Source of the DNA: Flavobacteriales bacterium
Lineage (GTDB): Bacteria > Bacteroidota > Bacteroidia > Flavobacteriales_H > JAHEZO01
Direction of reading: 5' to 3'
DNA length: 43,144 nucleotides
Assembly: GCA_023250995.1 (NCBI GenBank)
Contig: JAHEZO010000003.1
Span: 1 to 43,144 of the forward strand
The notes under the pieces are model-generated. The model was given only the letters and a program-made list of their open reading frames with translations, did no database searches and had not been told where the DNA came from. Shown here piece after piece: positions 15,024 to 37,400 of this stretch (position 1 is its first letter; every line of letters starts with the position of its first letter). Made by a program: the position numbers and the translations under genes.

Positions 15024-15036
15024 TCAGTCTTGCCTT

Positions 15037-16555: not shown

Positions 16556-16632
16556 AAAACTATAAACCCATAAACCATAAACCATAAACCCATAAACTAA
16601 TAAACTGATAAACTTTTTAACTCATAAACTAA
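16556..16632. repeat. C/A-rich octamer-like array (CATAAACC / CATAAACT variants), complementary in sense to the 16245-16432 array
   Basis: The sequence is CTATAAACCCATAAACCATAAACCATAAACCCATAAACTAATAAACTGATAAAC...CTCATAAACTA. Its reverse complement (GGTTTATG-type) mirrors the G/T-rich array across a ~120-bp AT-rich centre. It overlaps the ilvA stop codon. Confidence 0.75.
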
Positions 16633-17882
16633 ATTAGGTATTGAAACAAATCTGGCCGGTCATTTAAATATTCTCCCAGAAAATTTTTGTTTTTCATGCG
16701 GTTTATCAAAGGAGCAAAATCCTCTTTCCTTTTAAGCTCCACCCCTACCACAGCCGGTCCTTTTTCGCGGTTGTTTTTTTTCGAATATTCAAAATAAGTG
16801 ATGTCATCATCCTTACCTAAAACATCATTCAAAAATTCACGCAATGCACCTGCCCGCTGCGGAAAACGGATAATAAAATAGTGCTTTAATCCTTCGAACA
16901 AAAGGGCCCGTTCTTTAATTTCTTCCATCCTGGTTATATCGTTATTGCTTCCGCTGACAATACAAACCACATTTTTTCCTTTAATTTTTTCTGAATAAAA
17001 ATCAAGGGCAGAAATTGATAAAGCACCGGCCGGCTCAATAACAATCGCGTCCTTATTGTATAGTTTTAAAATGGTGGAACAAACTTTTCCCTCAGGGACA
17101 AGGATAAGCTCATCCAAAACATTTTTGCAGGTTTCAAACGTAAGTTGTCCCACCCTTTTAACTGAGGCCCCATCCACAAAAGTATCAATGGTATCAAGAG
17201 TAACCAGTTTGTTTTTTTGCAATGATATTTTCATTGCCGGAGCCCCGGCAGGCTCTACCCCAATGATTTTTGTTTTTGGGCTTAAAAGTTTAAAAACACT
17301 TCCCACCCCCGAAGCTAATCCGCCCCCTCCAATTGGCAAAAAAAGAAAATCAATGGGCTTTTTTGAATCCCGGATAATTTCCAAAGCAACGGTTGCCTGT
17401 CCTTCAATTATTTTTTCGTCATCGAATGGATGAATGAAGGTGAGTTGATTCAAATTGCAAAAGTCATTTGCTTCCTTAAATGAATCATCATAAGAATCTC
17501 CTGTTAAAATAATTTCGGCAAATTCTTTACCGAACATTTTCACCTGATTAATTTTTTGTGCGGGTGTGGTTTGAGGCATAAATATTTTGCCTTTTGTCTT
17601 AAGTGCCCGGCAGGAATAAGCAACCCCCTGGGCATGGTTTCCGGCACTGGCGCAAACAATTCCCTTTTCCAATTGAACTTTGCTGAGGGATTTTATTTTA
17701 TTGTAAGCCCCTCTTATTTTATAAGAACGCACAATTTGCAAATCTTCGCGTTTTAAAAAAACATTTGCCCGGTGTTCCTCAGAAATGTTGAGATTAAACA
17801 TAAGGGGGGTGGGAAGAATTACCGGTTGCAGGACTGATGCGGCTTTGTTGATTTTTTTTATGTTACAAATCCATGGAGGCAT
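16629..17882 (-). CDS. ilvA: Threonine ammonia-lyase (biosynthetic threonine dehydratase)
   Basis: 417 aa with SYKIRGAYNK (PLP lysine), ASAGNHAQGVA, PIGGGGLASG and a C-terminal ACT-like regulatory domain. It is the last gene of the ilv cluster. Confidence 0.9.
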   Translation of the reverse strand: MPPWICNIKKINKAASVLQPVILPTPLMFNLNISEEHRANVFLKREDLQIVRSYKIRGAYNKIKSLSKVQLEKGIVCASAGNHAQGVAYSCRALKTKGKIFMPQTTPAQKINQVKMFGKEFAEIILTGDSYDDSFKEANDFCNLNQLTFIHPFDDEKIIEGQATVALEIIRDSKKPIDFLFLPIGGGGLASGVGSVFKLLSPKTKIIGVEPAGAPAMKISLQKNKLVTLDTIDTFVDGASVKRVGQLTFETCKNVLDELILVPEGKVCSTILKLYNKDAIVIEPAGALSISALDFYSEKIKGKNVVCIVSGSNNDITRMEEIKERALLFEGLKHYFIIRFPQRAGALREFLNDVLGKDDDITYFEYSKKNNREKGPAVVGVELKRKEDFAPLINRMKNKNFLGEYLNDRPDLFQYLI

Positions 17883-18041
17883 TTTACTACTATATAAATA
17901 AAGTTTTTAAATTGAGTTTTGGATAAGGTTTAAAATATCATTCTAAAAATAAAAAGGTTTACTTTTTCATCTTGCCACAAAAACACAAAAGCTGTGTTTG
18001 CACTTTCTTTTTATGCAAAACTCAGGCTATTAATAACCATC

Positions 18042-19088
18042 TCATTTATTTCCCGGCCGGAGTTTTCTAACCTGAGCACCTGCCTGCCAAAGTTCGGAAT
18101 CGTGAATTTCCTTTAATTCTTTCGAGAGGTTTTCCCTGTAATCAGGCTTTTTATTTGCCCTGATCACTATTTCGGCTTCCTTGCCGGTTGCAACACTTTG
18201 ATATAATTCTTCGAAGAGAGGAGTAACAATATCCCTGAAACGATGCCTCCAATCGAGGGCGCCACGCTGGGCGGTGGTGGAAGTGTTAGCATACATCCAA
18301 TCCATCCCGTTTTCGGCCACAAGAGGCATTAAACTTTGAGTTAGCTCTTCCACCGTTTCGTTAAAAGCCTCGGAAGGAGAATGGCCATTTTTTCTTAAAA
18401 CGTTAAACTGGGCTTCAAACAAACCAGCCAGGGCTCCCATTAAAATCCCCCTTTCTCCGGTAAGGTCTGAAAATACTTCTTTTTGAAAATTTGTTTCGAA
18501 TAAATACCCCGACCCCACTCCAATTCCAAGTGAAATTACCCTGTCTTTTGCCTTTCCGGTAGCATCCTGAAAAATGGCATAGCTGGAATTTAACCCTTTC
18601 CCCTGAAGAAATAATCTTCTCAATGAAGTACCCGAACCCTTGGGTGCCACTAAAATTACATCAACATCAGCAGGGGGAATTATCCCTGTTTGTTCCTTAT
18701 AAGTTATACCGAACCCATGCGAAAAATACAAGGCCTTACCTTTTGAAAGGTGCTTTTTAACTATAGGCCAGCATTGGATTTGCCCTGCATCGGAAAGCAA
18801 ATACTGAATGATGGTGGCTTTTTCACAGGCCGCCTCAAGATCAAAAAGATTTTTTCCTTCTATCCATCCATCTGCCAGGGCATGATCCCATGATTTCGAA
18901 TTTTTCCGTTGGCCCACAATAACATTAAAGCCGTTATCACGTAAATTAAGCGACTGCCCGGGGCCCTGAACTCCGTACCCAATTACCGCTATCACCTCAT
19001 CTTTGAGAGTATCCTGTGCTTTTGCAAGGGGAAACTCCTCTCTGGTAACAACGTTTTCTTCCACTGAACCAAATTTGATTTTTGCCAT
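18042..19088 (-). CDS. ilvC: Ketol-acid reductoisomerase (class I)
   Basis: 348 aa with IGYGVQGPGQSLNLRDNG (NADPH site) and conserved KARI C-terminal blocks (SHGF, LFEAQ, ETVEEL). Confidence 0.95.
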   Translation of the reverse strand: MAKIKFGSVEENVVTREEFPLAKAQDTLKDEVIAVIGYGVQGPGQSLNLRDNGFNVIVGQRKNSKSWDHALADGWIEGKNLFDLEAACEKATIIQYLLSDAGQIQCWPIVKKHLSKGKALYFSHGFGITYKEQTGIIPPADVDVILVAPKGSGTSLRRLFLQGKGLNSSYAIFQDATGKAKDRVISLGIGVGSGYLFETNFQKEVFSDLTGERGILMGALAGLFEAQFNVLRKNGHSPSEAFNETVEELTQSLMPLVAENGMDWMYANTSTTAQRGALDWRHRFRDIVTPLFEELYQSVATGKEAEIVIRANKKPDYRENLSKELKEIHDSELWQAGAQVRKLRPGNK

Positions 19089-19156
19089 AAAATAAATTAA
19101 TTTGTAAATGATTTAATTAGCTAATTAGTTAACAAGTTAATTACTTTCAAAACTTT

Positions 19157-19729
19157 TTATCCCTGGTGTGCTTCCTCCAGTTCCTTTAAATAAATTGATA
19201 ATTCTTTCATCGGTTTGGTGATAGCCACTCTACCGGACCTTGCAAATTCGAGAACTCCAAAAGGTTCGAGTTTTTTAAATAAAACCTGTGTTTCGTGCTT
19301 ATGCCCTGTCTTTTCAATAACAATATAATCTCTTGCCACTGAAAGAATCCTGGCATGATTATCACGCACGATTTTTTCAATATTGTTCTCACTGTTAAGG
19401 GAGGAGGTTTTTAGCTTGTAAAGAGCTATCTCCTGATGCACAACATCCCGGTCTTCGTGAACAAATGCCTTTAAAACCTCCACGAGTTTTTCAATTTGTT
19501 TAACCACTTTTTCTATTTGCTCCCTGGTGGTTTTGCAAACAATAGTATACCGGTGTACATCCTTTATTTCCGATTCTGAAGCGGTAATACTTTCAATATT
19601 CAGATGTCTCCGTGTAAAAATTATTGTGATGCGGTTAAGCAGGCCGATTTTATTTTCGGTGAAAATAGAAAGGGTAAAAACTGTGCCTTCCGATGCGTCT
19701 CCGTTTTGATGAACCTCTGTTTTATTCAT
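19157..19729 (-). CDS. ilvN: Acetolactate synthase small (regulatory) subunit
   Basis: It has the ACT domain FTLSIFTENKIGLLNRITIIFTRRHLNIESITAS. I place the start at the ATG at 19727-19729 (MNKTEV). The ORF-track start at 19753 is a TTG reading through an A9-G-A9 tract. Confidence 0.85.
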   Translation of the reverse strand: MNKTEVHQNGDASEGTVFTLSIFTENKIGLLNRITIIFTRRHLNIESITASESEIKDVHRYTIVCKTTREQIEKVVKQIEKLVEVLKAFVHEDRDVVHQEIALYKLKTSSLNSENNIEKIVRDNHARILSVARDYIVIEKTGHKHETQVLFKKLEPFGVLEFARSGRVAITKPMKELSIYLKELEEAHQG

Positions 19730-19753
19730 GTTTTTTTTTCTTTTTTTTTCCAA

Positions 19754-20049
19754 AGAGACGCCCTTGTAGGGCGTCTTTACGGTTTTATCGTGCCTTCCTG
19801 TTCGATGATATCCTCCTATAGGACGCCCTTGTAGGGCGCCCCTACGGTTTTATCGTGCCTTCCTTTGCGAGGATATCCTCCTATAGGACGCCCTTGTAGG
19901 GCGTCCCTACGGACCTATCAGATCTCATGGTGGGTGCCCTTCCTTTCATGCCTGGAGACGCCCTTGTAGGGCGTTTCCATGGGACTATCAGATCTCACGG
20001 TGGTTGCCCCTCCTTTCATACCTGGAGACGCCCTTGTAGGGCGTCTTTA
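19754..20049. repeat. Array of five GACGCCCTTGTAGGGCGTC palindromes at 65-70-bp spacing (REP/BIME-like), between ilvB and ilvN
   Basis: The palindromes start at 19757, 19822, 19887, 19957 and 20027. The two 65-bp units are near-identical to each other (...TACGGTTTTATCGTGCCTTCCT...GATATCCTCCTATAG). The two 70-bp units are also near-identical to each other (...CTATCAGATCTCA-GGTGG-TGCCC-TCCTTTCAT-CCTGGA). Confidence 0.9.
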
Positions 20050-20069
20050 CCGGGCTTATACGGAAAGGA

Positions 20070-21815
20070 CTACTCCAGCCTTATCTCCGATACTGAAGCC
20101 CCTGTTGGTATCATCGGAAAAACATTGCCTTCTTTTTCTACCACCACCTCTAAAAGAAAAGCCTCTTTATGTTTCAGCATTTCTGTAATCGAGTTTTCCA
20201 AAAGGCTTCTTTCGGTTACTTTTTTTGCATTTATCCCAAATCCTTTTGCAACGGCCACAAAATCGGGGTTTGTCATTTCGGTAAAGGAATATCTTTTTTC
20301 AAAAAACATTTCCTGCCACTGACGAACCATACCAAGGAAATTATTATTCAGGATAACAATTTTTACTGCCGCTTTAGTTTGAGCAATGGTTCCAAGTTCC
20401 TGCAGGGTCATTTGAAAACCACCGTCACCAATGATGGCAATAACCTGTTTATTCGGGGCAGCAGTTTTTGCTCCTAAGGCAGCCGGAAGTGCAAAACCCA
20501 TGGTTCCCAGTCCACCCGAAGTAACATTGAAACTTTCATCTTTGTAATTAAAATACCTCGAAGTTACCATCTGGTGTTGCCCCACATCCGAAACAATAAC
20601 AGCATTACCATTGGTTTTTTCGGAAATGATTCTAATTGCCTCAGCCATTTTTAATTTTCCGGAACCCGGGTGCAATTCATTTCTTCCAACTTTTTCGAAT
20701 TCCAATTTATTTCCTTCATCAAACTTTTGCAGCCATTCGGCATGAGAATTTTTTTTCGCCAATGGTATAAGGGCTTTCAGCGCCTCTTTCGCATCGGAAT
20801 TAATGGCAACATCAACCTTTACATTTTTGTTTATTTCGGCCGGATCAATTTCAATGTGAATTATTTTTGCCTGCCGGGCATACTTGCCCAAATTCCCCGT
20901 TACCCGGTCGTCAAATCGCATCCCGATAGCAATAATTACATCGCTTTGGTTGGTTAAAATATTTGGAGAATAATTCCCGTGCATTCCAAGCATCCCTGCA
21001 TAAAGAGGGTGATTTACAGGAAAACTTGAAAGGCCAAGTAAAGTACAGGCAACGGGGATTCCGGTTTTTTCAGAAAATGTTTTCAATTCTTCTTTTGCTC
21101 CTGAAAGTAATACACCCTGGCCAGCCAATATAAGTGGTTGTTTCGCATTGTTGATCAGTTTGGAAGCAGATTCAACAGATTCAGGGTTAAATTTTGGAAA
21201 AGGAATATAACTTCTGATTTTTCCACATTTTTCATATCTGAATTCCAGATTTCCGAACTGGGCATCCTTTGTAATATCAATGAGGACAGGACCAGGCCGA
21301 CCGGTTTTTGCAATAAAAAATGCCTTGGCAACTGCCTCAGGAATTTCCTCTGCTTTAGTAACCTGGCAATTCCACTTTGTAACCGGCATAGATATTCCGA
21401 CAACATCGGTTTCCTGAAATGCATCGGTTCCGAGAAGATGAGAAGAAACCTGGCCTGTAATACAAACAAGAGGAGTAGAATCAATTTGAGCATCGGCAAT
21501 TCCTGTAATTAAATTGGTTGCTCCGGGCCCAGATGTGGCAAAACAAACTCCGGGTTTTCCGGAAACCCTTGCATAACCCTGAGCGGCATGAACAGCTCCC
21601 TGCTCATGTCTTACCAGAATGTGATTTATTTTATCCCGGTAATCATAAAGTGCATCGTAAATGGGCATTATTGCCCCTCCCGGATACCCGAAAATTGTTT
21701 CAACATTTTCTTCTATCAGGGAAAGGATTAAAGCTTCAGCACCGGTAATTCCGGCATTTTTCTTATAAATTTTTTTAGGTTTTGTAATAGTTTTTTCTTT
21801 CATTTTATAATCCAT
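20070..21815 (-). CDS. ilvB: Acetolactate synthase large (catalytic) subunit, biosynthetic type
   Basis: 581 aa with [14 protein letters not shown] and the ThDP motif [13 protein letters not shown]...[10 protein letters not shown]. The alternative ATG four codons downstream (MKEKT) would remove the 11-nt overlap with ilvD. Confidence 0.95.
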
Positions 21816-23478
21816 CAGTTAAGCATCCTTCGGATGCAGTTGAAACAGACTTGGCGAATTTATACAATGCCCCGCTATTTACTTTTAATTTTGGTTGTTT
21901 CCATTTTGATCTTCGTTCCAAAATTTCCTTTTCGTCAAGATGAACTTCAATACTGTTTTTGGTTGAATCAATTGTAATTTCATCTCCATCTTTCAGAAGT
22001 GCAATCATTCCGCCATCCTGGGCTTCGGGGGTAATATGCCCAACAACAAAACCATGTGTTCCCCCGGAAAACCGTCCATCGGTAATTAAAGCCACATCGT
22101 TTCCTAAACCAGCACCCATTATAGCAGAGGTTGGCTTTAGCATTTCGGGCATCCCCGGACCACCCTTCGGCCCTTCATACCGAATTACAACCACATCGCC
22201 TTTCTTAACTTTGCCATTTAAAATCCCTGCGGTGGTTTCGAATTCACTGTTAAAAACCTTTGCTTTGCCAATAAATTTTTCTCCCTCTTTTCCGGTAATT
22301 TTTGCTACAGCACCTTCTTTAGCCAGGTTGCCAAAAAGAATCTGAATATGGCCGGTTTTATTTAGTGGATTACTTAACGGTTTTATTACATCCTGATTTT
22401 TTGGAAGGGGTTTTATTTTTCTCAGATTTTCTTTTAGGGTTTTCCCGGTGATGGTTAAACAATCTCCATGAAGAAAATTATTTTCGAACAAAAGCTTCAT
22501 TACTGCAGGAGTGCCACCAATGCGGTGAACATCTTCCATTAAATATTTTCCGCTGGGTTTTAAATCGGCAAGGAAAGGAGTTTTATCGCTGATTTTCTGA
22601 AATTCATTCAGGCCGAATTTTATTCCTGCGGTTTTTGCGATGGCAATAAAATGAAGTACTGCATTCGTTGATCCTCCTAAGGCCATCACAAGGGTAATGG
22701 CATTTTCCAATGATTTTTTTGTAATAATGTCGAGGGGCTTAATATCCTTTTGAAGCAGGTTTTTCATTTCCTTGCCAGCCTCGAAACATTCAATTTTTTT
22801 CTCCTTACTCAAGGCCGGATTCGAAGAACTGAAAGGAAGGGACATTCCCAAAGCCTCTATTGCCGAGGCCATCGTATTAGCAGTATACATTCCTCCGCAG
22901 GCACCAGCACCCGGACATGCATTTTTTACAATGTTTTTAAATTCCCGGTTCGAAATTTTTCCGGCATACTTTTCACCAAGGGCTTCAAAAGCTGAAACAA
23001 CATTGAGGATTTTTTCTTTATAACAACCGGAAGCAATGGTGCCACCGTAAACCAATATCGAAGGGCGGTTCAGCCGGCACATGGCCATCAGGGCACCGGG
23101 CATATTTTTATCACATCCCACCACGGCCACCAATCCGTCATAACTCTGAGCATTCATTACAGTTTCAATGCTATCGGCAATAATTTCCCTCGAAGGAAGG
23201 GAATATCTCATCCCCGGAGTACCCATCGAAATGCCATCACTTACTCCGATGGTGTTAAAAATTAATCCGATTAATCCCGAATTATTGGTCCCGTTTTTTA
23301 CCAAACCGGCTAAATCATTTAAATGCATATTGCAGGGATTTCCATCAAATCCGGTGCTTACAATTCCCACCTGTGCTTTTTTTAAATCTTTTTCCTTTAA
23401 TCCCAAGGCATAAAGCATGGCCTGAGCGGCAGGCTGGGTTTCATCCTGTGTTACTGTGCGGCTGTATTTATTAATCAT
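21805..23478 (-). CDS. ilvD: Dihydroxy-acid dehydratase
   Basis: 557 aa with [21 protein letters not shown] and [14 protein letters not shown], the IlvD/Edd family signatures. Confidence 0.95.
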
Positions 23479-23480
23479 GA

Positions 23481-26400
23481 TTAAAGTTTAATATATTTTC
23501 TTTTAAATACGCAGTCGGAGCCGGCAGATATTGAAAGCAAAAAAATTCCAGGAGGCAAAGGTGGTAATTCAAGAGTTAATACTGTATCTGAATTCCGCAC
23601 ATTTTTTTCAACCGCCCCCCTGCCGGTAATATCATGCAAAACTATACTTAAATTTTTATGCCCTGCCGGGGTAAAAATTGCAAATTGGGAAAAATCCGAA
23701 TTCGGAAATGCAATTATGCCCGATTCAATGGAGTAACTTACCGATATAGGATTAAATTGTTGGAAACTGCCATTGACATCCACCTGAATTAATTTAAAAT
23801 AATTTATTCCGGCCAGCGGATTTTCGTCAATAAAGCGATAATAATTAATAGTGGAAGAATTCCCTGAGGCACTCATGGAGTCGATGGTAAAGTATGTTTT
23901 TAAATCGGCTGACTTAAGCAGAAGAAAATAATCCGAATTAATTTCGGATGCCGTGGACCAACTGATAAAAATTTTGTTTTCTTTTAAAATAGCGTTAAAT
24001 GAAATCAGGTCAACCTGCAAAGGAGCATTTGATTCATATGCACCCCGCCATGGCCCATTGCATGATCCACATGGAATGGCCACAGTACCCGAAGCCCTGC
24101 TCACTCCATCAATATCCACCGTTATTCCGGTTGTGTTTATTCCATTAGATTTTACATCTGCAGTGGTGGCCGAAGGAACATTTCCGGCAGGGGCAATAGT
24201 AATGGTTCCGTTTATATCATTTGCTCCTTTTGGAATGGCCTGCCAGCCCGCAAAAGAATAATCCTGTGCTGCTCCTGCCGCTCCCCAATGCACGCATTTG
24301 TTTACATTGTCGGAAACTTCGAGATAATTGTAATCCCAGGTTCCTACCGGACTGGATTTTACCTGCTGGAAAGCATAATTAAAGCCGGAACCTCCGGTTC
24401 TTTTATTCTGAAAAATATTATTTTTTACATTGAAAGCAGATCCATCGCTATTATTTAAATAGTATGAACTGCTGGTGGTTGACCCTCCGGATGTTCCTGC
24501 CATTTTAATCGTGTTGTGGTATAATTCGGGAGCCCCGTTGGTAGCTCCTGATCCCCAATAAGAATAAATTCCATACATTGAAACCGAATTGGTATTGGTA
24601 GAATTATCGAGTACCATGGCATTATTGTGGTATTTAAAATTATTCGAGATGGAAGCCGAATTATTATATTGAAAAACTCCTGCAATTATTCCCGAACCTC
24701 CGGTTGAAAGGTTTGAAATTGAATAGATGTGATTTTGTTTAAGATTAAAGCTTGCCCCCGCATCCCCGAAAAAAATTCCCGATATCAAATTATTTATTGC
24801 GGTATTATCGGTAAGAGATAAATCATTGATGGTATTGCCGGTAATGGAATTATCAGAGGATGTCCCATTGGTACATAAAAAATTCAGGGCTGAAACTGAG
24901 GGGGCGGTAGTAGAAGCATATTTTGAAGCTGAAGTAATGTTTGCTATGGAATTATTTGTAATGGCACAATATTGAGGATTTCCGGAGGAAGGGCCAAAAT
25001 AAATTCCGTAAAATTTATTGCTTGTGCCGGTATTTGTAAGGTTAAATTGCCTGATATTATTGCTGCTGAAAGTATATGTATTTGCACCGGCAGGTGTATA
25101 GGAATCGGTGAAATAAATTCCAAATGTTGAGCAATTGGCTGCGATACTAATATTGTTTGAAGAGCTTCCCCCGATTAAATTTGAATTTATTGTTGCAGGT
25201 CCAACTCTCGAATCAACATAAATAAAATAAATTGAGGTGGCTCCGCTAATAGTAATGTTGCTGATAGAGTTTCCCGATATATCAAAATTCCCGGCCCGGT
25301 TATAAACCGTATTACCATTGGAAATTAATTTAAAAGAGGAAGTGGCCGTTGAACTTATATTTGAAAAAACATTTCCTGTGCAAACCAAAAGGCTGTACTG
25401 AACGCCCCCGTTGCTTACCGTTTGATTTAAGCCCAGTTCATTGAGGATTCCATAAATCGGAACTGCAGAAACGGTGGAAATTTTAAAGTTTTGAAAAGTA
25501 TTGTTAGTGATGGTTTGGGTAATGGAAGAAACATTTCTGTCGGAGGTGGTGCTGTAGTCAGTTATCCATTCTTCCTTCATTCCGGCAATAATATCCATAT
25601 TGTCGGCTGCTCCATTTCCAAAAGTATTGTTATCAATAGTGGCATCCACACTGCATAAATTTTCAACCAGGCAAATTTTTCCGGAGGTGTTAGATCCGGA
25701 TACTTTAACCCCCCCCATGGTATTGTACCCCACGTTAACGGCACCGGAAGTACCTGCAATTTTTATTAATGAAAAGGATCCCTGCGACCCTGAATTGGCT
25801 GAATTATCCGCAATGCTTATTCCATCGGAAGATGACCAAACTCCGGATGTTGAGCCAATGGTATTAGGACTTGATTGAGTACCAATGGTAATGGAAGCTG
25901 CTCCGGAGGTATTAATAGCGGTAAACAAGGGGACAGAAGTGCTTGTTGAAGTAAAGGAAATATCGTTGATAATGTTTCCGGTAATCGTAATTGAAGTGCT
26001 TGCCCCTGCATCAATTCCGCTAAAAGTAGAAGCTCCGGTTTGAGTGAGGTTGGTGAAACTATTGTCGGTAATACTAACGGTTGTAGCAGACCCCGAATGA
26101 ATGAAAACCCCGTAAAATTTTGTGGATGTAGTAATGTTTTGAATGGTATTGGTATTTATATCTGCCGTAGTGCCTCTGAAATAAACACCATAAAAAGGAT
26201 CTGCCGTACTTGTCCCCGAACAGGTAATATCTTTTATCTGATTTAAAGAAGCTGAGGGTAAAGTGGCTGTTGAGGATGAGCCATAATCAATTTTTATTGG
26301 CTGGAAGCTGGCACCTGAAGAAGAGCTGGTTTGGTTAATTTGCTGAATTACATTGTTATTTACTGTAAACGTCCCCTGGTATCCGAGGTAAATTCCCTGA

Positions 26401-28199
26401 TGATAGTTTGCAGAGGCAAGAGAAAGATTATTTGCAGGAGAGGATGCTCCTATGGTATTGCCGTTGCAGGTCAAAGTGCCCGAATTATCAAGTTCTATAA
26501 AACTAACCCAGCATTTGGTGGTGGCTGATTGGGTAATGTTTGAAATGGTATTTGAGCTTACAACCAAGGTGCCGCTGCCTGTGGATGATTTTAGGAAACG
26601 CCAGTTTACATTAGAGGCAGATCCTGCGGTAGAAATAGAAATGTCGTTTATAACATTATCTGTTACCGTACATGATTTCCCTGTAGTAGAATTAAAATAA
26701 ATCAGGTTGCCGCTGTTATTATCATTTACAGCCGCATTAAAGTTAATTCCCTGCAAAGTATTATTTGTAATTGTACAGGTGGTTGGTGAGGTTGTTGCCT
26801 GCGTGGATATTCCATAAAAAACATTTTTTATACCATAAACAATATTATTTGATGTTGTGTTTCCAATGGTGTTGTGGTCGATGGTTACCGAGGAATAATA
26901 ATTTGCCGTGGCAACAGTACCGATAAAATATATGGAGGCGGGGGTGGAAGTGCTGGTTATTGAAATGGCCCCGAAAGTATTATAGGCTACGGAAACGGTT
27001 TGAGTGGTAATGGAGGTGGAAGTGTATATTCCCTGAAAAGGAGAAAGAGACGTGTTATTTGCAGCAACAATAATGCTGGCCGTTGCCCCGCTCGTTTCGC
27101 CAAACTGGTTTCCGTTTCCGGAAGAACCGATAATATAATTGCAGCTTCCAAATAAGCTGAAACCGGAAAAGGCGGCTTCTCCCGCAGTGGAATTGGTGGT
27201 GGTTACGCTAATATTTTTAATGGTATTTCCCGAAATGGTTATTGTTCCTCCGGAGGTGCTTGTTCCTGAGGTAACCACCGAAAATGTGTAAGCAGATGTA
27301 TTAAGGGTAAACGGGGTTGCTCCAGCGCACAAGGCATCCTGACCTCCGAAATAATTTCCTGTAATGGTATAACCTCCTCCGCTGGTAAGGTAAACCATGT
27401 AAACTTTTGCTGCAGGGGTAAAGGCGGTGGATTGATAAAAGCTATTATTTGTTATTGAAAAAGAATTGGTATTAGCTGCGCAATAAATCCCCACCATTTT
27501 GAAATCAAATATCCTGCAATTAGTTATGGTATTTGCGCTGTTGGATTTTGAAGCCGTCCCATTTGATAAAATGGCATTCCCCACGAGCTTGGTGTTATCA
27601 TCCGTTCCAATATAACAATTTGAAATCTCGTTATTGTTATTTCCGGAGGAACCGGTGGTGGTCGAAAATATTATTGCTCCGTCAGAAGTTGAACCTGCAT
27701 TGGAGTTATAGGAAAATATCTTAGAATATTTAACGATGTTTGAGGTGGCATCGTTTCGGAATAATACCGTGCCGGCACCGCTGGAAGTGTTGGTATTTTT
27801 AATTACCAGGTCCTCGGTGGTTCCGCTGGCGTTCACTCTGCCATCGAGGGTAACATTATCTGCTCCGTTAAAATCTATTAAAGGTGAAGCTACACTGCCC
27901 GAAAGAGTATAGCCGGTTGCGGTTGGATAAATGGTTAATGAAGTCCAGGAACTTGTACCGGGCTGGTTTAAAACAGCCGATGCATTATCGGTAATGCTGG
28001 TTGTAATGGTAATAACAATGTTGTTCCCTCCCTGCGCCCCCTGGGCGTTAATGGCGGCAAAAGCTAATCTGAGATTTGCATAAGTTCCGTCCGCGCCTGT
28101 TGACCCGGCAACTGTGGCTTGTGAAAAAGATTTCAAAAACATTACAGAAAACAGAGTCATCAAAAAAATAATTATCAGATAGTCTTTTTTTAAAAACAT
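23481..28199 (-). CDS. Large secreted Ser/Thr/Asn/Gly-rich parallel-beta-helix repeat protein with a T9SS C-terminal sorting domain
   Basis: 1,572 aa with signal peptide [27 protein letters not shown], followed by hundreds of residues of NxI/TNN beta-helix-like repeats. The pre-tail module reads [28 protein letters not shown]. The tail reads AFPNS...HDITGRGAV...GIFLLSIS...KRKYIKL. Confidence 0.85.
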
Positions 28200-28209
28200 T
28201 TAACAAAAT

Positions 28210-29079
28210 TTATCCTGAAAAGGAAACTTTTTTCCTGTATTCATTTGCCAACAAAAAACCCTTTGTTTTCTTCCATTTAACTTTGAATTTTACTCCATCA
28301 ACGGAATTGATTCCTGCCACTTCAGCAGCGGTGCCGGTAAAAAACGCCCCATCGGCAGTGATAAGTTCAGAGGGTTTAAAAAACCTTTCTGTAACTTCTA
28401 TGTTTAAATTCCCTGCAAGTTCAATAATTGTTGCTCTTGTAATTCCCGGAAGAATATTTCCGAGCGGAGGGGTAAAAAGAATGCCGTTTTTTTCAAAGAA
28501 AAAATTCGCACCCGGGCCCTCTGCAACAAATCCATTCATATCGAGCATCAGAGCTTCGTCAAAACCTTTTTGTTTTGCTTCGGTAGTAGCAAGAATTGAA
28601 TTGGTATAATGCCCGGAAACTTTTGCATCCACATGGCAGGATTTGGGATTGGGCCTTTGGAAAGAAGAAACCATAATATTCAATTGTTTATCTCCCAGAT
28701 ACTTTCCCCACTCCCAGGCAGAAATAAATAAATTGGCTTCATCAGTAGGAGTAAGTGACATATTAGCCCCCAGGTAAACAAGCGGGCGTATATATGCATC
28801 TCCCAGATTATTTTTTTTCAGGACCTGATACGTTATTTTGGTGAGTTCATCCGAAGAATAATTTAATTTAATGTGCATTTTTTTTGCAGAATACAAAAGC
28901 CGCTCAAAATGCTCCTTTGCTTTAAAAATTTTTACTCCGATGGAGGTATTATAAGAACGAATCCCCTCAAATACCCCGTTTCCATAATGAAGGGTTTGGC
29001 CGTAAAGGGAAGAATTGGCATTTTTAGCCCGGATGAATTTTCCGTTGAGGAATACTATTGTGTTTTCGTTGTAATACAT
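28210..29079 (-). CDS. ilvE: Branched-chain amino acid aminotransferase (class IV)
   Basis: It has GNGVFEGIRSY and AYIRPLVY blocks and sits first in the ilv cluster. The start is taken at the ATG at 29077-29079 (MYYNENTIVFLNGKF). The ORF-track start at 29097 is a TTG inside the U-tract of the upstream terminator. Confidence 0.9.
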   Translation of the reverse strand: MYYNENTIVFLNGKFIRAKNANSSLYGQTLHYGNGVFEGIRSYNTSIGVKIFKAKEHFERLLYSAKKMHIKLNYSSDELTKITYQVLKKNNLGDAYIRPLVYLGANMSLTPTDEANLFISAWEWGKYLGDKQLNIMVSSFQRPNPKSCHVDAKVSGHYTNSILATTEAKQKGFDEALMLDMNGFVAEGPGANFFFEKNGILFTPPLGNILPGITRATIIELAGNLNIEVTERFFKPSELITADGAFFTGTAAEVAGINSVDGVKFKVKWKKTKGFLLANEYRKKVSFSG

Positions 29080-29095
29080 ATATAAAGGTTTAGTC

Positions 29096-29129
29096 AAAAA
29101 AAAACCATCCTTTTTTTAAGAATGGTTTT
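29096..29129 (-). terminator. Rho-independent terminator (attenuator) between the leader ORF and ilvE
   Basis: The minus-strand RNA reads AAAAACCAUUC-UUAAAAAAA-GGAUGGUUUUU followed by more U. The stem is 9-11 bp with one G-U pair. It ends 16 nt before the ilvE ATG. Confidence 0.7.
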
Positions 29130-29149
29130 TGAAATATAAAAAAGTATTT

Positions 29150-29227
29150 TTTATACCTGCACCATCCATTTCCTGCGGCTAATTACTGCAAGGATAATTT
29201 GAATGATTATGGCACTGAATATTTTCA
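29150..29227 (-). CDS. ilv operon leader peptide (25 codons, Ile/Val/Leu-rich)
   Basis: The minus-strand ORF runs from the ATG at 29225-29227 to the TAA at 29150-29152 and encodes MKIFSAIIIQIILAVISRRKWMVQV. That is 7 Ile, 3 Val and 1 Leu in 25 codons, with III and II runs. The terminator follows about 20 nt downstream. Confidence 0.65.
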
Positions 29228-29467
29228 TGTTGCTTTTGATTTGAAGTGCGAATGTACAATTAGTTTTAGAATTGGCTTTGGGGGTGATTTAAAAATTGGT
29301 TTCTTGGGCTTGCCCTCCGCGTTTTTTTTGCATCCAGGTTTGAAAGTTTAGCCTCTTTGCCCCATCGTAAAAAAAAAGAAATGCCACTAAAACACTAAAC
29401 CACAAAATCCCACTAAATTAATTTTCCTAAATACATTTCATCTTTTTCCCACTTAATCATACAAAAG

Positions 29468-31312
29468 CTATTTTACCTTTCGTTCCATTCCATTATCATC
29501 ATTTCTCATTGGAGAGGAAACATTTACCGGTCCGGGTTCAAAACGGATATCGGCAAATGGCGAAAGACGTTTTCCCACCATGGCATCCGCCACATTGCAG
29601 GTAATACTCCATTGAAAGGAGGTGTTTGAAGTTCCCCCATCCAGTTCAACCACATCAAATCCATTTTTTGTTTTGTTGGTAACATACACCCCCTTGCAAT
29701 TCCCTTCCAACTGAACAAAAACCCTCAACGGATGTTTTTCGCTGATCATTACATTTTTTGCCAGTATGGGATCAATTTCAATGTGAGCTTTGCCATTGTT
29801 AAGTTTCCCTTCGCCATAATCCTGAAAATAAAATTCAGGAGTTTCGGGGGCATGAAGTGTTGCTGGATTTCCATTTAAATCGGGAACTGAAGTGGAAGTC
29901 GTTCCAACATTATTTTGCCAAATTTTATAATGAGTTCCCCCCACAGAGAATGCTTCAACCAGCGTAGTGCTGAAAGCGCCTCCCGCTCCATCACCTGCAA
30001 CAAAATATCCACCTGCTGTTTGTCCGCTTGTGGCCGCTTGATAACCCGATAAGCCATATTCATTTCCTATAAAGGCACCACCGCAACCGGAGGCAGGGGC
30101 AGAACCGTTGGCATTGCTGGATTTTCCAACTACACCATAGGAAGAAGTAGCGAAAATGGCTTTGCCATAAACCCCATAAGCACCGCTATTTGGAGCATAC
30201 CCATAAACACCCTGAAGGGTCCCGAAAAACGAACCTCCTGCTCCCCCGGCCACATTGGTATAGCTGCTCACATTATTTCCAATGCCAATTATTCCTGTTC
30301 CTGTAGTATTCAGGTTTGAACCATAAACTCCATATCCTGCCGATTGCTGGGTGGCTCCATAAAGTCCGATGCCCGCACCGGCACCGGAAGCTGCGGTATT
30401 TTGCCCTGTTAACCCCACACCGGCACTGTTACTATTGGAAATTACAGCCAAAGATGAAGCATTGCTCCCTAACCCATGAAGGGGATAGGACGGTGATGCG
30501 GTACCAAAGCCAATATTTCCGGTGGTTTGTTTCACTCTTAACCGCTCAATAGAATTAGTTCCGATTACAAAATCATTTGCTGCTGTTGCACCAATCCAGT
30601 TTTCGCTTCCCCCAATGGTTGAAGTGCCATAGGTTGCGGGAGTGGCAGGGTTTGTAAGTGTTGCATTCCCATTTAATCCCCAGGCACTTCCTCCTCCTCC
30701 TGACCCTGTTGGCCCTGTAACTCCGGTTGCTCCTGCAGTTCCTGTGGGGCCGGTTGTTCCAGCTCCCGTTGGGCCGGTGGCGCCTGTCCCGGTTGGGCCG
30801 GTGTTACCCGCCACACCTGTTGGGCCCGTGGGGCCGGTACTTCCTGTTGCCCCGGTTACTCCACCGCCTCCACCACCGGATGGGCCGGTAGGCCCCTGTG
30901 CCCCGGTTGGTCCTGTTGAACCATTGGAGCCTGTTGGACCTGCAATTCCGGTACCGGTGGGACCAGTGGCACCAATAGTTCCCGTGGGGCCCATTGGCCC
31001 GGTTGGGCCTTGAGAACCGCCTCCTCCTGAGCTAATGGATTTCCAAAAAGTTCCATCAAAATAGTAAAATACATTATCTAAAGTTTGAAAAATAAGCAGG
31101 CCTGTGGCCGGAGTTCCGGGGGCATTGTTTACAGTAACTGTATCTGTTCTTGGAATCAACACTCCTTTATCCGTTGATTTTAATTCAAGCAAAGCACTTT
31201 GATCGGGAGTAAGGGTTCCCACCCCAACATTCTTTGTTTGTGATTTTAAATCCTTGAAATTCAGAATTACCGAAAAGGCAATTAGGCCAAAAGCAAGAAT
31301 TGGTTTTTTCAT
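29468..31312 (-). CDS. Collagen-like / tail-fibre-like Gly-rich surface protein
   Basis: 614 aa. The signal peptide and N-domain [16 protein letters not shown]...[23 protein letters not shown] are paralogous to the protein at 15037-16197. Interrupted Gly-X-Y run spans roughly 30683-31018. An internal [24 protein letters not shown] motif is followed by a Gly/Tyr-rich region (GYGVYG, GAYGVYG, SYGVVG). There is no Por-type tail. Confidence 0.8.
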
Positions 31313-31370
31313 AAATGGGGATGTGTTATGTTTAACTAAATTATTGACCGAAGACGGAAGCTGGGAGCTG

Positions 31371-31424
31371 GAAGACGGAAGACCGAAGCTTGAAGTCTTT
31401 TTCCGTCTTCGGTCTTCCGTCTTC
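31371..31424. repeat. Perfect 18-bp-stem hairpin of low-complexity sequence (GAAGACGGAAGACCGAAG / CTTCGGTCTTCCGTCTTC) with a partial third copy
   Basis: Positions 31371-31388 are exactly complementary to 31407-31424, with an 18-nt loop. A partial direct copy, GACCGAAGACGGAAGC, lies at 31347-31362. The element sits between the giant-gene stop (31499) and the collagen-like gene start (31312). Confidence 0.85.
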
Positions 31425-31498
31425 TGACTTCCAAAATCCTTTTGTTTCTTTTAATTCTATAAAGACAACTTTTGGAACAGGGATAAAATATTCCGGGT

Positions 31499-34400
31499 TT
31501 ATTCTTTCACAATTTTTTGCAAAAATTTTCTTTCCGAATTTTCTCCCTCGGCAGATATTATGATAAAATAAATTCCCTGATTTATTCCGGTCAAATCAAA
31601 TTGGTAATTCCCGTTTTTTTTAATTTTAAATTTATCCTTCCACACTTCCCTTCCGAGCAGGTCGGTTAATTTAATTTGGCAATTCAAATTTTCGTAACTT
31701 CTAATCTCAACATTCAGACTTTCGGTTACCGGATTGGGAAACACCTCTGCAAAAATATTTTCTTTTTCCGAATATGATAATGAAATTGTTTTTGAATAAA
31801 TGTACCTTCCATCAAAGTCAGTTTGTTTAAGGCGGTAATACAAAATAGTTGAGAGTTGAGGGTTGAGAATTGAAGGGAGCTCTCTATCAACAAAAGAATA
31901 ATCATTGGGGGAGGAAGAATTACCGGCTCCTTTTACCTTGCCGATGTTTGAAAAATAATGAGCATCCAGGCTTCTTTCAACAGCGAAATAATCGTTGTTG
32001 GTTTCGGAGGCGGTGGACCAGAAGAGGTGGGAATTACCCTCAATAAGGATACCTGAAAAATTCAAAAGTTCAATGGGCAAAGGGCTATACGCTTGACTAC
32101 ATGTGCTTGCCCAACTATACATTGAGTAACTTGCAGAATACTCATCGGCCCCAATATCGGGTGAAGAACGGGTATTGTCATCATAGTCTTTTGAAACACC
32201 CACATTCGTTCCTGAATTTATGGCCGGGCTTGAGCTTCCGATATGAAGGTCGGGGGAAGTGCCGGAGGGGCTTACGAGCAAGGGGTCAGATGATTGTCCG
32301 TTTATATCAAATCCGGTTCCGGAAGTGGGAGCAGGTGTTGCGCTCCAGGCTGCAAGTGTTGAATAATCCACATTTGTGGTGTTGTTACCCGCGCTTCCGT
32401 AATAAAAATTTGTTCCTGTGCCGTACACTAAATTATAATCGCACGTAACATTCACCGTGGAATTATAATTGAGTAAGTAAATGCCGTAATTTTTTCCTGT
32501 GCCGGCAGTGGTGGTTCTGTTATTAACCACAATATTATTTTTTATAGTGAACGCCTCGTATTGTGCGCTGCTCCAGTTAAAATAGCGCGCGATGCCGTAG
32601 GAATTCAGGTTATTGCCTCCCGTGTTATCGTTTGTGCCTTCTATGTAAACTGTATTGTCGTAGAAATAATATTTGAGCCAGCCGGTGTTATTGGAAGAGT
32701 TGTCATCCCAAATCCCGAATATGTAAACGTTTTTCACAGTGGTTCCATCGGGCTTCAGGCCGAGAGAAATCATATTATTTTGTACATAATAATTTGCTCC
32801 CGGTGAACTGCCGTTTCCCGAAGGCAAATCAATTCCAACCAGGCCTCCGTAATCACCGCTTCCGCCAAACCCATCGGGATAATAAAAATTATAAATCACA
32901 TTATTCTGAATGGTAGTAGTTCCATAAGGACCTGCCATCGCCACAATTCCTTCTATGTATGCTTTGTTGGTTCCACCTGTCATGTTAATTTCCAACTCAT
33001 AAACCTGATTATTGGAAATCATATGCGTGTGGGTTTCAGAATAAGAAGTGTTGAGTACAATACCTCCGATAATAATCATGTTGTAAATGGGCGAAGTGTT
33101 ATATGAACTTCCGCCTGCAGGAATCGGCAAATACAAATTGTTGCGGTAATTGTTTGCCGAGATTAATCCGTTAACAATATTATTTGTAATTGTGTTGTCA
33201 CCGATTTGCCCGGCAGTATAAGTCATGATGCCGATTATTCCATCGTACGTATATGTTCCGTTCGGGAACGCTCCATCAGAGGTCATATTGCAAACATTGT
33301 TTCCGCAAATAGTGGAGATTGCCTTACTTGAATTCAAGATCCCCAGCATCGTTCCGTACTGCCCTGCATGAATATTTCCATGGCTTGCAGTGGGGTCTCC
33401 AATACGGTTATTAAGAACGTTATAGGTTGCTAAAGTGGATGTGCCATCCACATTGATTCCGCAAAAAGTCTGAGAACCGGCATTGCTTCCCGTTGTATTG
33501 TCGAGATTAATATTTTGGATAATGTTAGCAGAAACGGAAACTGTCCCTCCCGAATTCACATAGATGCCTGTAAAATCCTGCGGGTTAATATCGTTATATC
33601 CTCTATGTCCTTTGTACGACATAGTGCCCGTTGCCTGCGCAGCATTTCCTCCAATGTAATTTCCGGAAATTGAGTTCCCGCTCGAGGTACTTCCTGCATT
33701 AAAACTTATTCCGGCTACAAAGGAAGATCCGGCAGGAATTGTAGTTGCATAAATGCTGTTTCCCGAAATTGTCCAATTGTTTCCACTGTTGTTGGATGTT
33801 ACGCAAATTGCCGCGTTGGTAAAAACTCCGGACGCAGGGTAACTTCCGGCCAATCCCTGGAAATTATAAATATTGTTATTCATAATTTTAATATCAGAAT
33901 TGGTTCCTGAAGCACTGGTTGCCAGAATTCCGTTATACTGATACGAAGAAAAATTTCCAATGTAGTTGTATTGAATTACATCGTTGTTGTTCCCACCGGT
34001 ACTGAGTAAAATAGTTCCTGTTGTATTGGCAGGACTGCCCAATACTTTTACATATTCCAAAGTATCGGAAGTTGCTGCACTGATGAATCTGAAATTCGGA
34101 TAGGAAGTTCCATTCGTTGTGTTGGTAATTGTCCATAAAATATTACTCATATTTCCGCTCCCTCCCGGTCTTCCGTCAAACGTGAGGCGGTCAACTCCGT
34201 TCAGGTCGATAAATGGCGCGCTGGCCGTTGCTCCGGAGGTAGTGAGCATTGATGAAATTCCTGAAGCGGGACGGATGGTTGCATTCCATGGTCCACCTGA
34301 ATTGGTGAATTGATTAAACGTAACGGGAAAAGTTTCTCCGGTGCTCCCATCATAATCCGACTGAAGTTCAAAGATTACATTACCGGAAACAGCATAGGTG

Positions 34401-37400
34401 TTCAGCGCTTTGGCAACGTCAGTAACCTTCAGCAGGTGTCCTGAATTTCCTACCGTGTAAACTCCGCTCAGCGTTACTACCCCTGCTGTTCCCAAAACAA
34501 AATAACCCAAACTCGTTCCTACATTACTTGAAAGCACCGGTGATGGAGAAGTTCCTCCTCGCGTTACATAAGTTCCTGCCAGGGTAGAGGATTGCCCAAC
34601 CCGGTTTGCAGTCCCGAGTGTTCCCTCGGTTAATCTTACAGTAGTAGTGTTCAGGAAACCTGATGAAGCTGATGCAGACCAATACCGATTCGTATTTAAT
34701 GCCGACAATCCGAATCCTGCAGTTCCTCCTGAGTTAGCATCGAACACTTCGGCAGTAACAGTGCCTGCAACACTTGTGGTAGGATTAACAAGTTCAAATA
34801 AATTATAACTCCCTTTTCCTATAGGAAAAGTGTAGGTGCTTCCGGATCCAAGTGATGCAGGAAATGACCTTGTGAGAGGTCCATTCACATAAGAAGAGGC
34901 TGAACCGCCCGAAATTCCTCCCGTTGCCGTATTGTTTATCGTCAAAAGATTTGAAGAAGTAGTGGTAAGCAGCCCGTTTGTCAGCGTAAGAACTCCGGTT
35001 GTGCTCAGAGAAAGAGCCGCCCCAAGCGTTGCACCATTGGCACGGTTCATCGTTAAGTTCTGTAAATTATTTGTAATGGCAGGAATGGTAAGATTGGTTG
35101 ATGTTCCGCTGATAGTGAGCGAAGATGTAGTGCCTCCGGTGAGTGTTCCCGAGGCAACAGAAATATCTCCGGTTAATGTGAGCGTAAATGCGCCAATAGA
35201 AAAAACTCCTGCACTAAGTATGAGTGTTCCGGCAACAGTAAGGTTGCCTCCGTTTGTAACTGTGAATCCACTGCGGTTAACGGTAAGGTTCAGAAGTCCG
35301 TTGGTGATGGCAGGAAGTGTAGTGCTGACACCTCCTGTAAATTGTATGCTCGAAGTGGGGCCTGATGTTCCACTAAAAGTTCCCGAATTGGTGATTGTTC
35401 CATTAAAAGTGATGGTGTTATTATTTCCGAGTGCAAAAGTTACATTGGCGCTTGCATTGGTAAAATTTCCTGCAACTGTAAAAGACGCTACTGCTGTTTT
35501 AGTTCTTCCGGATGTTGCTGCAGTCATGGATAGATTTCCATAGGTAAGCGCTTCAATATTTTGTGTGTTGTCTCCATTGTAATTCACGGTGCTGGTTGAA
35601 CTGAAGGTGTAAGTCTGAAATAAAGGAAACGGACTTGCAGCAGTATTCAAATTAGTATAAATGCCTGAATTATTTATTGTAAATGTTTTTCCTGAACCGC
35701 TTCCCGGACCCGTTAAGAAAAAGCTTGCTGTTTCCGCCAGAGTGCCGTTATTAATTATGAGGTCTCCGCTCACTGTAGTTGCACCGCCTAATGTTGCGGT
35801 GTTAGAACTTTTATCGATCGTAAGATTATAATACGTGGTGCCCTTCACTGTTTGGGCTGCTGTTCCGGTATAGGTAACCAGATTTGGATTTGCTGTTGCC
35901 GTTAACGTTGGGCCGATACTCGCATTTGCCAAAGTGAAGGATGCGTTAGAGGCATTGGTGATAGAACTTGCTCCTGCAATGGCAGCGGTTCCCGTTGAAT
36001 TTAAAATTCCATTATTGGTTAGAGCGGCATTTATCGTGAAAAGTCCGGAAAGATTTACGGTTGAAGCAGAATTGATGTCTGTAATTCCTCCCATGGTTAC
36101 TGCTCCGAAAGAGCATGAGCCCGCTCCGCTTATTGATTTGGATGTTCCGTTAAAAGAATACGTTCCGGTTCCGGTTGAAACATTGAATGTTCCTGAATTA
36201 GAAAGATTGCCGGAAAAGCTAATGTTGGCAGCCACTGCCGTTGAATTGAAAGTTCCTGTTCCGCTCACAGTTACATCTCCCGTAAAAGTTTTTGTGCCGG
36301 CGGCTCCGTTAATTGTAAGAGTGCCGCCATCGGTTGTGGTTCCTGCCACAGTTAATCCGGTTGTAAAATTCCCGATATTCAATAATCCTCCTGTCACCAC
36401 AATATTTCCATTTACAGTAAGAAGCGAACCTGCTGTTCCGCTGAAAGAAACTCCGGAAGCATGGCTGTTGTTAAATTCAATATTTCCGAAATTGGTTCCT
36501 GTTCCAGAAATAGTTTGTGCGCTGGTGCCTGCAAGCAGAATTTCTCCGGAGCCGGGCGAACCCGAAGTTCCGTTGATGGTTCCGTTATTGGAAATATTTC
36601 CGTTTGCTGTAACAATATTTCCTCCATCATAAAATGCGCTCGTTGCATTTACAACTGTAAGAGTACCTGCAATCGTAAATGCACCTGCCGCTGTTTTTGC
36701 GTTTGCGAGCGCACCTGTACTTGTACTTAGATTTCCATAGCCGGGAGAAGGAACGGCATATACATCTTGTGCCGCAGCTCCATTGAAATTAACGGTGCTG
36801 GTTGTGCTGAAGCTGAAATTTAAGAATATTGGAAACGAACATCGATTGGTGGAATTATTAGCCGTACTCGCATTCGTCATGGTAAAAATTCCGGTTCCGT
36901 TAATTGAAAATGTTCCGGCACTGCCCGGGCCTGTGATCAGGTTTGTTCCGTCAGCAAGAGTAGCGCCTGTATTTATGGTAAGGTTATTTGCAATCGTTAT
37001 GGGAGAGGTTGCCCCCAGTGTAAGTGTTCCGCTGTTTACGGTTATATTATAGAATGGAAAGCCGTTATAAACGAATGAAGATGCTCCGTCAAAAATAACT
37101 GTGCTTCCATTTGTATTTCCAGCAGAATAATTTGCTGTTCCGGGATTAAAAGCAGTTTTAATAGTAATATTTCCTGCAGAAGATAATATAGGGTTAGTTG
37201 CAGCTGAAGTAGTAAGTGTATAATACGTTAATGGCATAACTGTTTGACTTATTCCCTGGTAAGTCACTGTGCTTCCTGAATTAGGAGTAACCGTTCCTGA
37301 ATTTGTTACAGTGCCAATTAACGTTAAACCGGTAACGGTTCCGGAAAAAGTTACAGTGCCGCTATTATCAAATGCTCCATTTACAATTAAGGGAGAAGTA

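Follow-up and report, generated by a model that had tools for sequence, protein, structure and literature searches.

A large predicted type IX secretion cargo gene lies between ilvE and ilvD in a leader-attenuated operon of an uncultured Flavobacteriales bacterium

How does a 4.7-kb gene for a predicted surface protein come to lie inside an operon for branched-chain amino acid (BCAA) synthesis, and is it expressed together with that operon? The question is raised by a metagenome-derived contig of a Flavobacteriales bacterium (GenBank assembly GCA_023250995.1, contig JAHEZO010000003.1, positions 1 to 43,144; this whole 43,144-nt stretch is referred to below as the window). The listing of open reading frames (ORFs) and direct reading of the junctions give the following minus-strand order: a leader peptide rich in Ile, Leu, and Val, a terminator, ilvE, 10 nt, a 1,572-codon ORF that we call BIG, 2 nt, and then ilvD-ilvB-ilvN-ilvC-ilvA. 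Judged by its sequence, BIG is an intact gene that is native to the genome, and a single attenuator-controlled transcript that includes it is the most likely state of this locus, with a probability of roughly 0.6.

The junctions themselves are the starting point of this argument. An earlier interpretation made from the DNA letters (the sequence-only reading) had placed BIG between ilvE and ilvD with gaps of 10 and 2 nt, and these coordinates proved exact, base for base: the ilvE stop codon TAA lies at 28212-28210, the BIG start codon ATG at 28199-28197, the BIG stop codon TAA at 23483-23481, and the ilvD start codon ATG at 23478-23476. The public gene call puts the start of BIG 13 codons further downstream, giving a protein of 1,559 aa and a first gap of 49 nt, but we prefer the 10-nt gap because only the upstream ATG yields a normal signal peptide with a charged n-region. 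The ORF of ilvE is open from a TTG at 29097; translation probably begins at 29079, with an ATG (MYYNENT...) that matches all relatives, rather than at this TTG.

We compared the ilvE-ilvD junction across related loci obtained from an ilvD search of one genome per GTDB species (L001-L080, best identity 74%) and an ilvE search of JGI metagenomes (L081-L160, identity at most 73%). In 81 of the 81 related loci that contain both genes ilvE directly adjoins ilvD, with gaps of -14 to 382 nt (median 6), and a BIG-like gene was found between them in none of the 81, in line with the earlier claim that the embedding is unusual. Loci with ilvE and no ilvD are leuC-leuD-leuB-ilvE operons, also free of any BIG-like gene. 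In a database of 5.8 billion proteins the ilvE of the window has its nearest matches at 74-75% identity, in Flavobacteriales-like sources; in four loci whose ilvE is closest to that of the window (L163-L166), ilvD begins 10-12 nt downstream, and ilvE and ilvD are adjacent in all of L163-L166, L168, L170, and L171, whose ilvE is closest either to that of the window or to that of L161, a contig described below. This adjacency, with gaps of a few nucleotides in relatives, implies that the ancestral ilvE-ilvD junction was already minimal. The layout of the window is thus rare among relatives, though it is not unique.

Half of it recurs in a second species. The closest homolog of BIG is a 1,988-aa protein, P0003, with 38% identity over ~1,000 aa and a top high-scoring segment pair of 455 bits, compared to 288 bits for the next match; a 15-letter protein motif of BIG occurs elsewhere only in P0003 among the 120 homologs listed. 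Its contig, L161 (Logan SRR9302961), carries the end of a leader ORF (...NVIIIIE, followed by the stop codon), a terminator, ilvE, and then P0003, which starts 8 nt after ilvE (TAA-attttaat-TTG) behind a spacer similar to that of the window. What lies downstream of P0003 can be read from L167, a JGI contig whose overlap with the end of L161 is 99.6% identical: copies of a repeat of ~110-135 nt, a 95-aa GIY-YIG gene, and a SprB-type giant gene, with no ilvD following. The repeat (cagatcccgggtctccgtttcacttcgcccgggaatctgag..., L167 745-1500) is present in at least four copies around the GIY-YIG gene, and L161 ends inside the first of them, which is the probable reason for the break in its assembly. 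The ilvE-BIG half of the layout is therefore conserved in a second species and the BIG-ilvD half is not. Other members of the family (P0002, P0016, and P0243) lie in genomic contexts unrelated to ilv genes.

The gene that has entered this position is, by prediction, a Sec-exported surface protein of the type IX secretion system (T9SS), consisting of a signal peptide, a beta-helix of ~1,350 aa, an FN3-like domain, and a sorting C-terminal domain (CTD). The AlphaFold model of residues 1-700 (predicted local distance difference test, pLDDT, 84; predicted template modelling score, pTM, 0.87) comprises the signal helix and a long right-handed parallel beta-helix, and Foldseek matched it to PL6 lyases, phage tailspikes, PfbA, and pertactin, at low TM-scores that reflect a generic fold. 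The model of residues 1151-1572 (pLDDT 76.5) prolongs the beta-helix through residues 1151-1315 and shows the end of the helix, a confident FN3-like domain, and a terminal beta-sandwich; its Foldseek matches include tandem FN3 domains and PorU. No Pfam or NCBIfam model matches BIG at threshold, the sole hint being PF18962 on residues 1498-1568 (E = 0.0076, 17 bits, below the 27-bit cut-off), and no Pfam beta-helix match (Beta_helix, PF13229) was obtained even at E <= 5; PF13229 is carried by some BIG homologs. The last 440 aa, CTD included, are 29% identical to the neighbouring giant protein, whose CTD passes PF18962 at 2.8e-11, and PF18962 is present in most C-terminal relatives of BIG. Homologs number 621 at E <= 1e-3 and are large beta-strand repeat or T9SS proteins of Bacteroidota and Ignavibacteria. 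The predicted fold and the CTD homology thus bear out the earlier description of a secreted beta-helix protein with a T9SS C-terminus, with the qualification that the CTD is divergent.

Surface-protein genes are common around this locus. Further PF18962 cargo genes are present within the window or contig; the neighbouring giant T9SS protein (31499-43105), which is at least 3,868 aa long and runs off the window, shares the helix end, FN3-like domain, and CTD with BIG, and the window also codes for a CotH protein with Por_Secre_tail, making the region dense in surface proteins. The possibility that BIG is a copy of that giant gene was ruled out, as the relation is limited to the C-terminal 440 aa at the identity given above. 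Collagen-like (Gly-X-Y, PTL_trimer) genes at 29468-31312 and 15037-16197 bracket the ilv operon on the same strand and are paralogs, 56% identical across their N-terminal 230 aa, so that the operon sits amid duplicated surface-protein genes.

T9SS genes are also recurrent neighbours of ilvE elsewhere. In L163-L166, L168, and L170 the same-strand gene just upstream of the leader encodes a T9SS protein of 579-636 aa that has the same FN3+CTD module, and in 1,588 kb of flanking sequence 8 of the 11 occurrences of this module are directly beside ilvE. P0003 resembles the upstream genes of L117, L168, and L170 across its N-terminal 440 aa, at 30-31% identity. In L117 that gene, a 635-aa T9SS gene (8068-10001) orthologous to those of L168 and L170, is separated from the ilvE ATG by only 25 nt, which contain neither a leader peptide nor a terminator. 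This constitutes another way of joining a T9SS gene to an ilv operon. The upstream collagen-like gene of the window showed no homology to the upstream T9SS genes of relatives. Seen against this background, the earlier view of BIG as an unrelated gene embedded in the operon stands as regards rarity and needs modifying as regards unrelatedness, since in a second species the closest homolog of BIG likewise comes after ilvE, and T9SS genes that share the C-terminal module recur beside ilvE.

The regulatory signal upstream of ilvE is better defined. The leader ORF lies ~150 nt upstream of ilvE, and a small ORF rich in Ile, Leu, and Val codons is found at the same position in 67 of 86 related loci as well as in L163-L170. 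The 151-nt leader folds better than its shuffles (z = -3.15), and when the right arm of the terminator is omitted, its left arm pairs with GGAUGGU from the 3′ end of the leader ORF (-13.2 kcal/mol; z = -1.55, which is not significant alone); this predicted pairing matches the classical antiterminator geometry. Together with the hairpin and its U-run, the conserved leader ORF and the leader fold indicate that the BCAA attenuator proposed from the sequence is real and conserved. No Rfam family reached threshold in a scan of the whole window, which places the attenuator outside the curated families, and a literature search turned up no paper that dealt with T9SS cargo genes inside ilv operons or with ilv attenuators of Bacteroidota. 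The leader-peptide ATG of L163, L164, and L166 is preceded at a distance of 5 nt by TAcaTTTG, a perfect -7 box of Bacteroidota, which implies a nearly leaderless leader mRNA in these loci.

Between the leader and ilvD this attenuator is the only intergenic terminator-like site on the minus strand; a few others fall inside coding sequence, in a scan whose total count of terminator-like sites equals the shuffled expectation. Neither junction of BIG has room for a terminator, as had been claimed, and none is predicted there. Because both junctions are minimal (10 and 2 nt) and lack a terminator, we infer that BIG most likely belongs to a single transcript. BIG is lodged between the first two genes of an otherwise canonical Bacteroidota ilvE-D-B-N-C-A operon, and one mRNA would in this case extend from the ilv promoter through the leader and attenuator, ilvE, and BIG to ilvD through ilvA. 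The surface protein would be made whenever charged Ile-, Leu-, or Val-tRNA is scarce, expression of ilvD through ilvA would need RNA polymerase to read through the 4.7 kb of BIG, and translation of ilvD may be coupled to that of BIG through the 2-nt spacer.

Several observations weigh against this interpretation. Co-transcription of ilvE, BIG, and ilvD is argued from spacing only, Bacteroidota promoters can sit in the 3′ end of an upstream gene, and within BIG a perfect -7 box precedes ilvD by 158 nt. The BIG homolog of the second species has no ilvD after it, so that only the ilvE-BIG half is kept. Moreover, the ilvE proteins of the window and the second species are 63.5% identical, each being nearer (69-75%) to ilvE proteins with an ordinary ilvE-ilvD junction, and a 45-taxon single-gene neighbour-joining tree rejects their sisterhood in 82 of 100 bootstraps, which complicates a simple story of common ancestry. 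This mismatch could be explained by an old insertion that was later lost many times, by a T9SS gene that moved from one lineage to another, or by a single-gene tree that is unreliable.

It is possible, although we think it less than probable, that the operon is transcriptionally split, with a promoter for BIG in the 3′ end of ilvE, a promoter for ilvD-ilvA in the 3′ end of BIG, or both; such a split is not mutually exclusive with a full-length transcript. The -7 motif of Bacteroidota, TAnnTTTG, occurs at two sites on the coding strand of BIG (23644-23637 and 25626-25619), a count at or below chance, and the first of these is the box near ilvD. The BIG ATG is preceded, at a distance of 4 nt, by a box with one mismatch, AAATTTTG, whose geometry resembles that of the box before the leader ATG in L163, L164, and L166, but a near-match of this kind is expected by chance in AT-rich sequence. 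Spacers that bear promoters are as short as 26-53 nt in relatives; in L168 the leader ATG is just 26 nt past the stop of the upstream T9SS gene, and a short spacer therefore does not exclude a promoter. Against a split, neither the box near ilvD nor the one-mismatch box has a -33 TTG at usable spacing, TAnnTTTG counts are below the shuffled expectation, promoter-like motifs are less dense in BIG (0.42 per kb) than in the window on average (0.70 per kb), and no terminator isolates the units, so that read-through from the ilv promoter would persist. The scan for -7 and -33 elements also misses the ilv operon's own promoter and is thus insensitive, neither showing nor excluding internal promoters, and a sigma-70 scan, which gave counts below the shuffled expectation, is uninformative for Bacteroidota. 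The internal promoter near 23500-24000 that had been suggested to rescue downstream expression finds no motif evidence in this insensitive scan beyond the lone -7-like box at 23644-23637. Were the operon split, its physical embedding would not mean shared regulation.

A rather unlikely alternative gives the arrangement a purpose: BIG would be displayed under Ile, Leu, or Val limitation, for example in attachment or foraging, and selection would keep the ilvE-BIG pair together. The pair, its spacer, and the upstream attenuator are kept in two species in which ilvE has diverged to the extent described above, T9SS genes recur beside ilvE in the clade, and the T9SS gene of L117 runs up to ilvE with no terminator between. 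On the other side, the layout is seen in just two species, the loci with the closest ilvE lack the insertion, and a neighbourhood shared among related genomes can be neutral. BIG also shows no sparing of the amino acids concerned: Ile, Leu, and Val make up 19% of its residues, similar to other surface proteins in the window, and Ile is high at 9.4%, by which BCAA sparing was ruled out. The regulatory link between BCAA status and surface remodelling suggested by the sequence-only reading is speculative and only hinted at by conservation of the ilvE-BIG pair and the recurrence of T9SS genes beside ilvE. We regard as unlikely the more specific proposal that a T9SS beta-helix protein has been recruited into the Ile/Leu/Val attenuator regulon of an uncultured Flavobacteriales lineage, in which a shortage of charged BCAA-tRNA would directly turn on the display of an adhesin or enzyme at the cell surface.

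That BIG is a horizontally acquired or mobile gene, recently and neutrally inserted and simply tolerated, appears decidedly improbable. Its absence from ~100 related ilv loci, the fast turnover of surface-protein genes, and the DDE transposase that adjoins the family member P0002 would fit such an event. The GC content of BIG (40.5%; 37.1% at third codon positions) is nevertheless like that of its neighbours, and its relative synonymous codon usage correlates at 0.89 with the ilv genes and at 0.87 with housekeeping genes, so that composition gives no signal of foreign origin or chimerism. A repeat search of 14500-31800 found no target-site duplication, direct repeat, or inverted repeat at the BIG junctions, and no transposase or recombinase flanks BIG among the Pfam domains; a 21-nt AT-rich inverted match (28189-28209 and 22921-22941) was judged to be chance. 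Junctions trimmed to 10 and 2 nt and a homologous pair in a divergent species also argue against recent arrival. An assembly chimera that joined a surface-protein gene into the operon is very unlikely, even though this is a metagenome assembly, because both joins coincide with the very short spacers that separate three complete, in-frame genes, share no repeats, and lie in sequence of uniform composition, because the same order is found on two contigs (43,160 and 50,630 nt, from records that may derive from the same reads), and because the ilvE-BIG join recurs in a species, sample, and assembler independent of those of the window.

The layout is probably old and inherited rather than a fresh insertion, because a homologous ilvE-BIG pair with a similar spacer occurs in a distant species and T9SS genes lie beside ilvE in neighbouring lineages. 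The sequences of these neighbours suggest that the position after ilvE arose by local rearrangement of an adjacent T9SS gene rather than by arrival of unrelated DNA, for example through tandem duplication of a T9SS-leader-ilvE unit followed by losses; for BIG, such a rearrangement is as plausible as a foreign insertion.

Table 1 Features of the ilv locus and of BIG, with coordinates in the window.
Feature	Coordinates	Strand	Basis and remarks
Leader-peptide ORF, MKIFSAIIIQIILAVISRRKWMVQV and stop	29151..29228	-	9 Ile/Leu/Val in an 11-residue stretch; read from sequence
Attenuator terminator, 13-bp hairpin AAAAACCAUUCUU/AAGGAUGGUUUUU and U-run	29096..29130	-	Terminator-scan match; ends ~17 nt before ilvE ATG
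ilvE	28210..29079	-	Class IV branched-chain amino-acid aminotransferase; Pfam Aminotran_4 2.3e-55; NCBIfam equivalogs NF005146 and TIGR01122 above cut-offs
ilvE-BIG spacer, 10 nt, aattttgtta	28200..28209	-	Junction read directly
BIG	23481..28199	-	Intact ORF; predicted 1,572-aa secreted beta-helix protein with T9SS-type C-terminus
BIG signal peptide (predicted), aa 1-27	28119..28199	-	Sequence inspection (MFLKKD, hydrophobic core, SFSQA); modelled as N-terminal helix
BIG right-handed parallel beta-helix passenger (predicted), ~aa 40-1390	24030..28082	-	AlphaFold models and Foldseek
BIG FN3/Ig-like domain (predicted), ~aa 1397-1490	23730..24011	-	pLDDT >90; Foldseek matches tandem FN3 domains
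BIG C-terminal beta-sandwich, putative divergent T9SS type A sorting domain, ~aa 1496-1571	23484..23714	-	PF18962 weak match, CTD alignment, model
Perfect -7 box TAGTTTTG	23637..23644	-	Sole example in the 3′ part of BIG; ilvD ATG 158 nt downstream; weak internal-promoter candidate
BIG-ilvD spacer, 2 nt, tc	23479..23480	-	Junction read directly
ilvD, dihydroxy-acid dehydratase	21805..23478	-	Pfam ILVD_EDD_N and ILV_EDD_C; relatives align from residue 1-2
ilvB, acetolactate synthase large subunit	20070..21815	-	Pfam TPP_enzyme N, M, C domains
Five tandem 65-70-nt hairpin repeats	19755..20050	.	Take up the larger part of the 316-nt spacer between ilvB and ilvN
ilvN, acetolactate synthase small subunit	19157..19753	-	Pfam ALS_ss_C and ACT
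ilvC, class I ketol-acid reductoisomerase, 348 aa	18042..19088	-	Pfam KARI_N and KARI_C
ilvA, threonine dehydratase	16629..17882	-	Pfam PALP and Thr_dehydrat_C

Further features were noted in the remainder of the operon and its surroundings (Table 1). Each unit of the ilvB-ilvN repeats contains the hairpin GACGCCC-TTGTA-GGGCGTC, a motif found nowhere else in the window; these units may be RNA-stability or processing elements resembling repetitive extragenic palindromes, or a recombination scar. The spacer between ilvA and the downstream collagen-like gene contains ~25-30 copies of an 8-nt tandem repeat of TTTAAGAG / GGTTGAAG type (16214-16450), and an imperfect 27-nt inverted repeat made up of GGAAGAC-type units (31350-31433) lies in the spacer that separates the giant T9SS gene from the upstream collagen-like gene. 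The class I ketol-acid reductoisomerase encoded by ilvC is 72-79% identical to those of Ignavibacteriales, Cytophagaceae, and Saprospiraceae loci, whereas the genomes with the closest ilvE (L163-L170) have a class II enzyme of ~490 aa; ilvN splits likewise, and the operon therefore looks mosaic downstream of ilvB.

Should BIG be read from the attenuated ilv transcript, the locus would offer a natural example from Bacteroidota in which amino-acid starvation sensing controls a very large secreted surface protein, and if the surface-display proposal were also true, a nutritional signal sensed by the ribosome would govern the composition of the cell surface. The operon would then illustrate how a tight biosynthetic unit can tolerate, and perhaps exploit, a 4.7-kb passenger that polymerase must cross to reach four to five essential downstream genes. 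If BIG is merely tolerated, the case is instructive yet one of ordinary operon plasticity. The recurrent neighbourhood of ilvE and T9SS genes provides a concrete comparative handle on these possibilities.

Several known systems offer points of comparison. In Escherichia coli, the ilv operon ilvL-ilvGMEDA is controlled by ribosome-mediated attenuation at a leader peptide, and attenuators in Bacteroidetes/Chlorobi have reportedly been predicted by comparative genomics, in work by Vitreschak and colleagues from 2004. The locus in the window resembles attenuated ilv operons in having an ORF with Ile, Leu, and Val codons, putative alternative hairpins, and an intrinsic terminator before the first gene, and in including ilvE, ilvD, and ilvA; it differs from that of E. 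coli in its order (ilvE-D-B-N-C-A), its uncultured Flavobacteriales-like host, and the 4.7-kb non-biosynthetic gene past the attenuator. Like T9SS type A cargo such as RgpB of Porphyromonas gingivalis and SprB, RemA, and ChiA of Flavobacterium johnsoniae (PF18962, TIGR04183), BIG combines an N-terminal signal peptide and a large passenger with an Ig/FN3-like domain and a predicted beta-sandwich sorting domain of ~75 aa at the C-terminus, and many members of its family pass PF18962, as such cargo does. Unlike it, BIG has a CTD below the Pfam cut-off, no NCBIfam match, a beta-helix passenger, and a position in an amino-acid operon. The predicted fold of residues 40-700, with its N-x-I-x-N-I/L repeats, recalls right-handed beta-helix proteins including PL6 alginate lyases, tailspikes, PfbA, and pertactin, from which BIG is set apart by TM-scores of 0.2-0.3, ~10% identity, the missing Pfam Beta_helix match, and the absence of identifiable catalytic residues; on the models, the passenger could be an enzyme or an adhesin. 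In Bacteroides thetaiotaomicron, a BCAA aminotransferase gene and a gene for a hypothetical protein (BT_3892-BT_3893) have been shown by differential RNA sequencing to be co-transcribed (PMC7366714). This pair likewise joins a Bacteroidota ilvE-type gene to a downstream gene of unknown function and serves as a lead only, since unlike the genes of the window it lies outside an ilvD-A operon. Compared to all of these systems, what is new here is an ilv operon with leader-peptide attenuation that carries a large T9SS cargo gene, a combination that is moderately interesting mainly because the association of ilvE with T9SS genes recurs.

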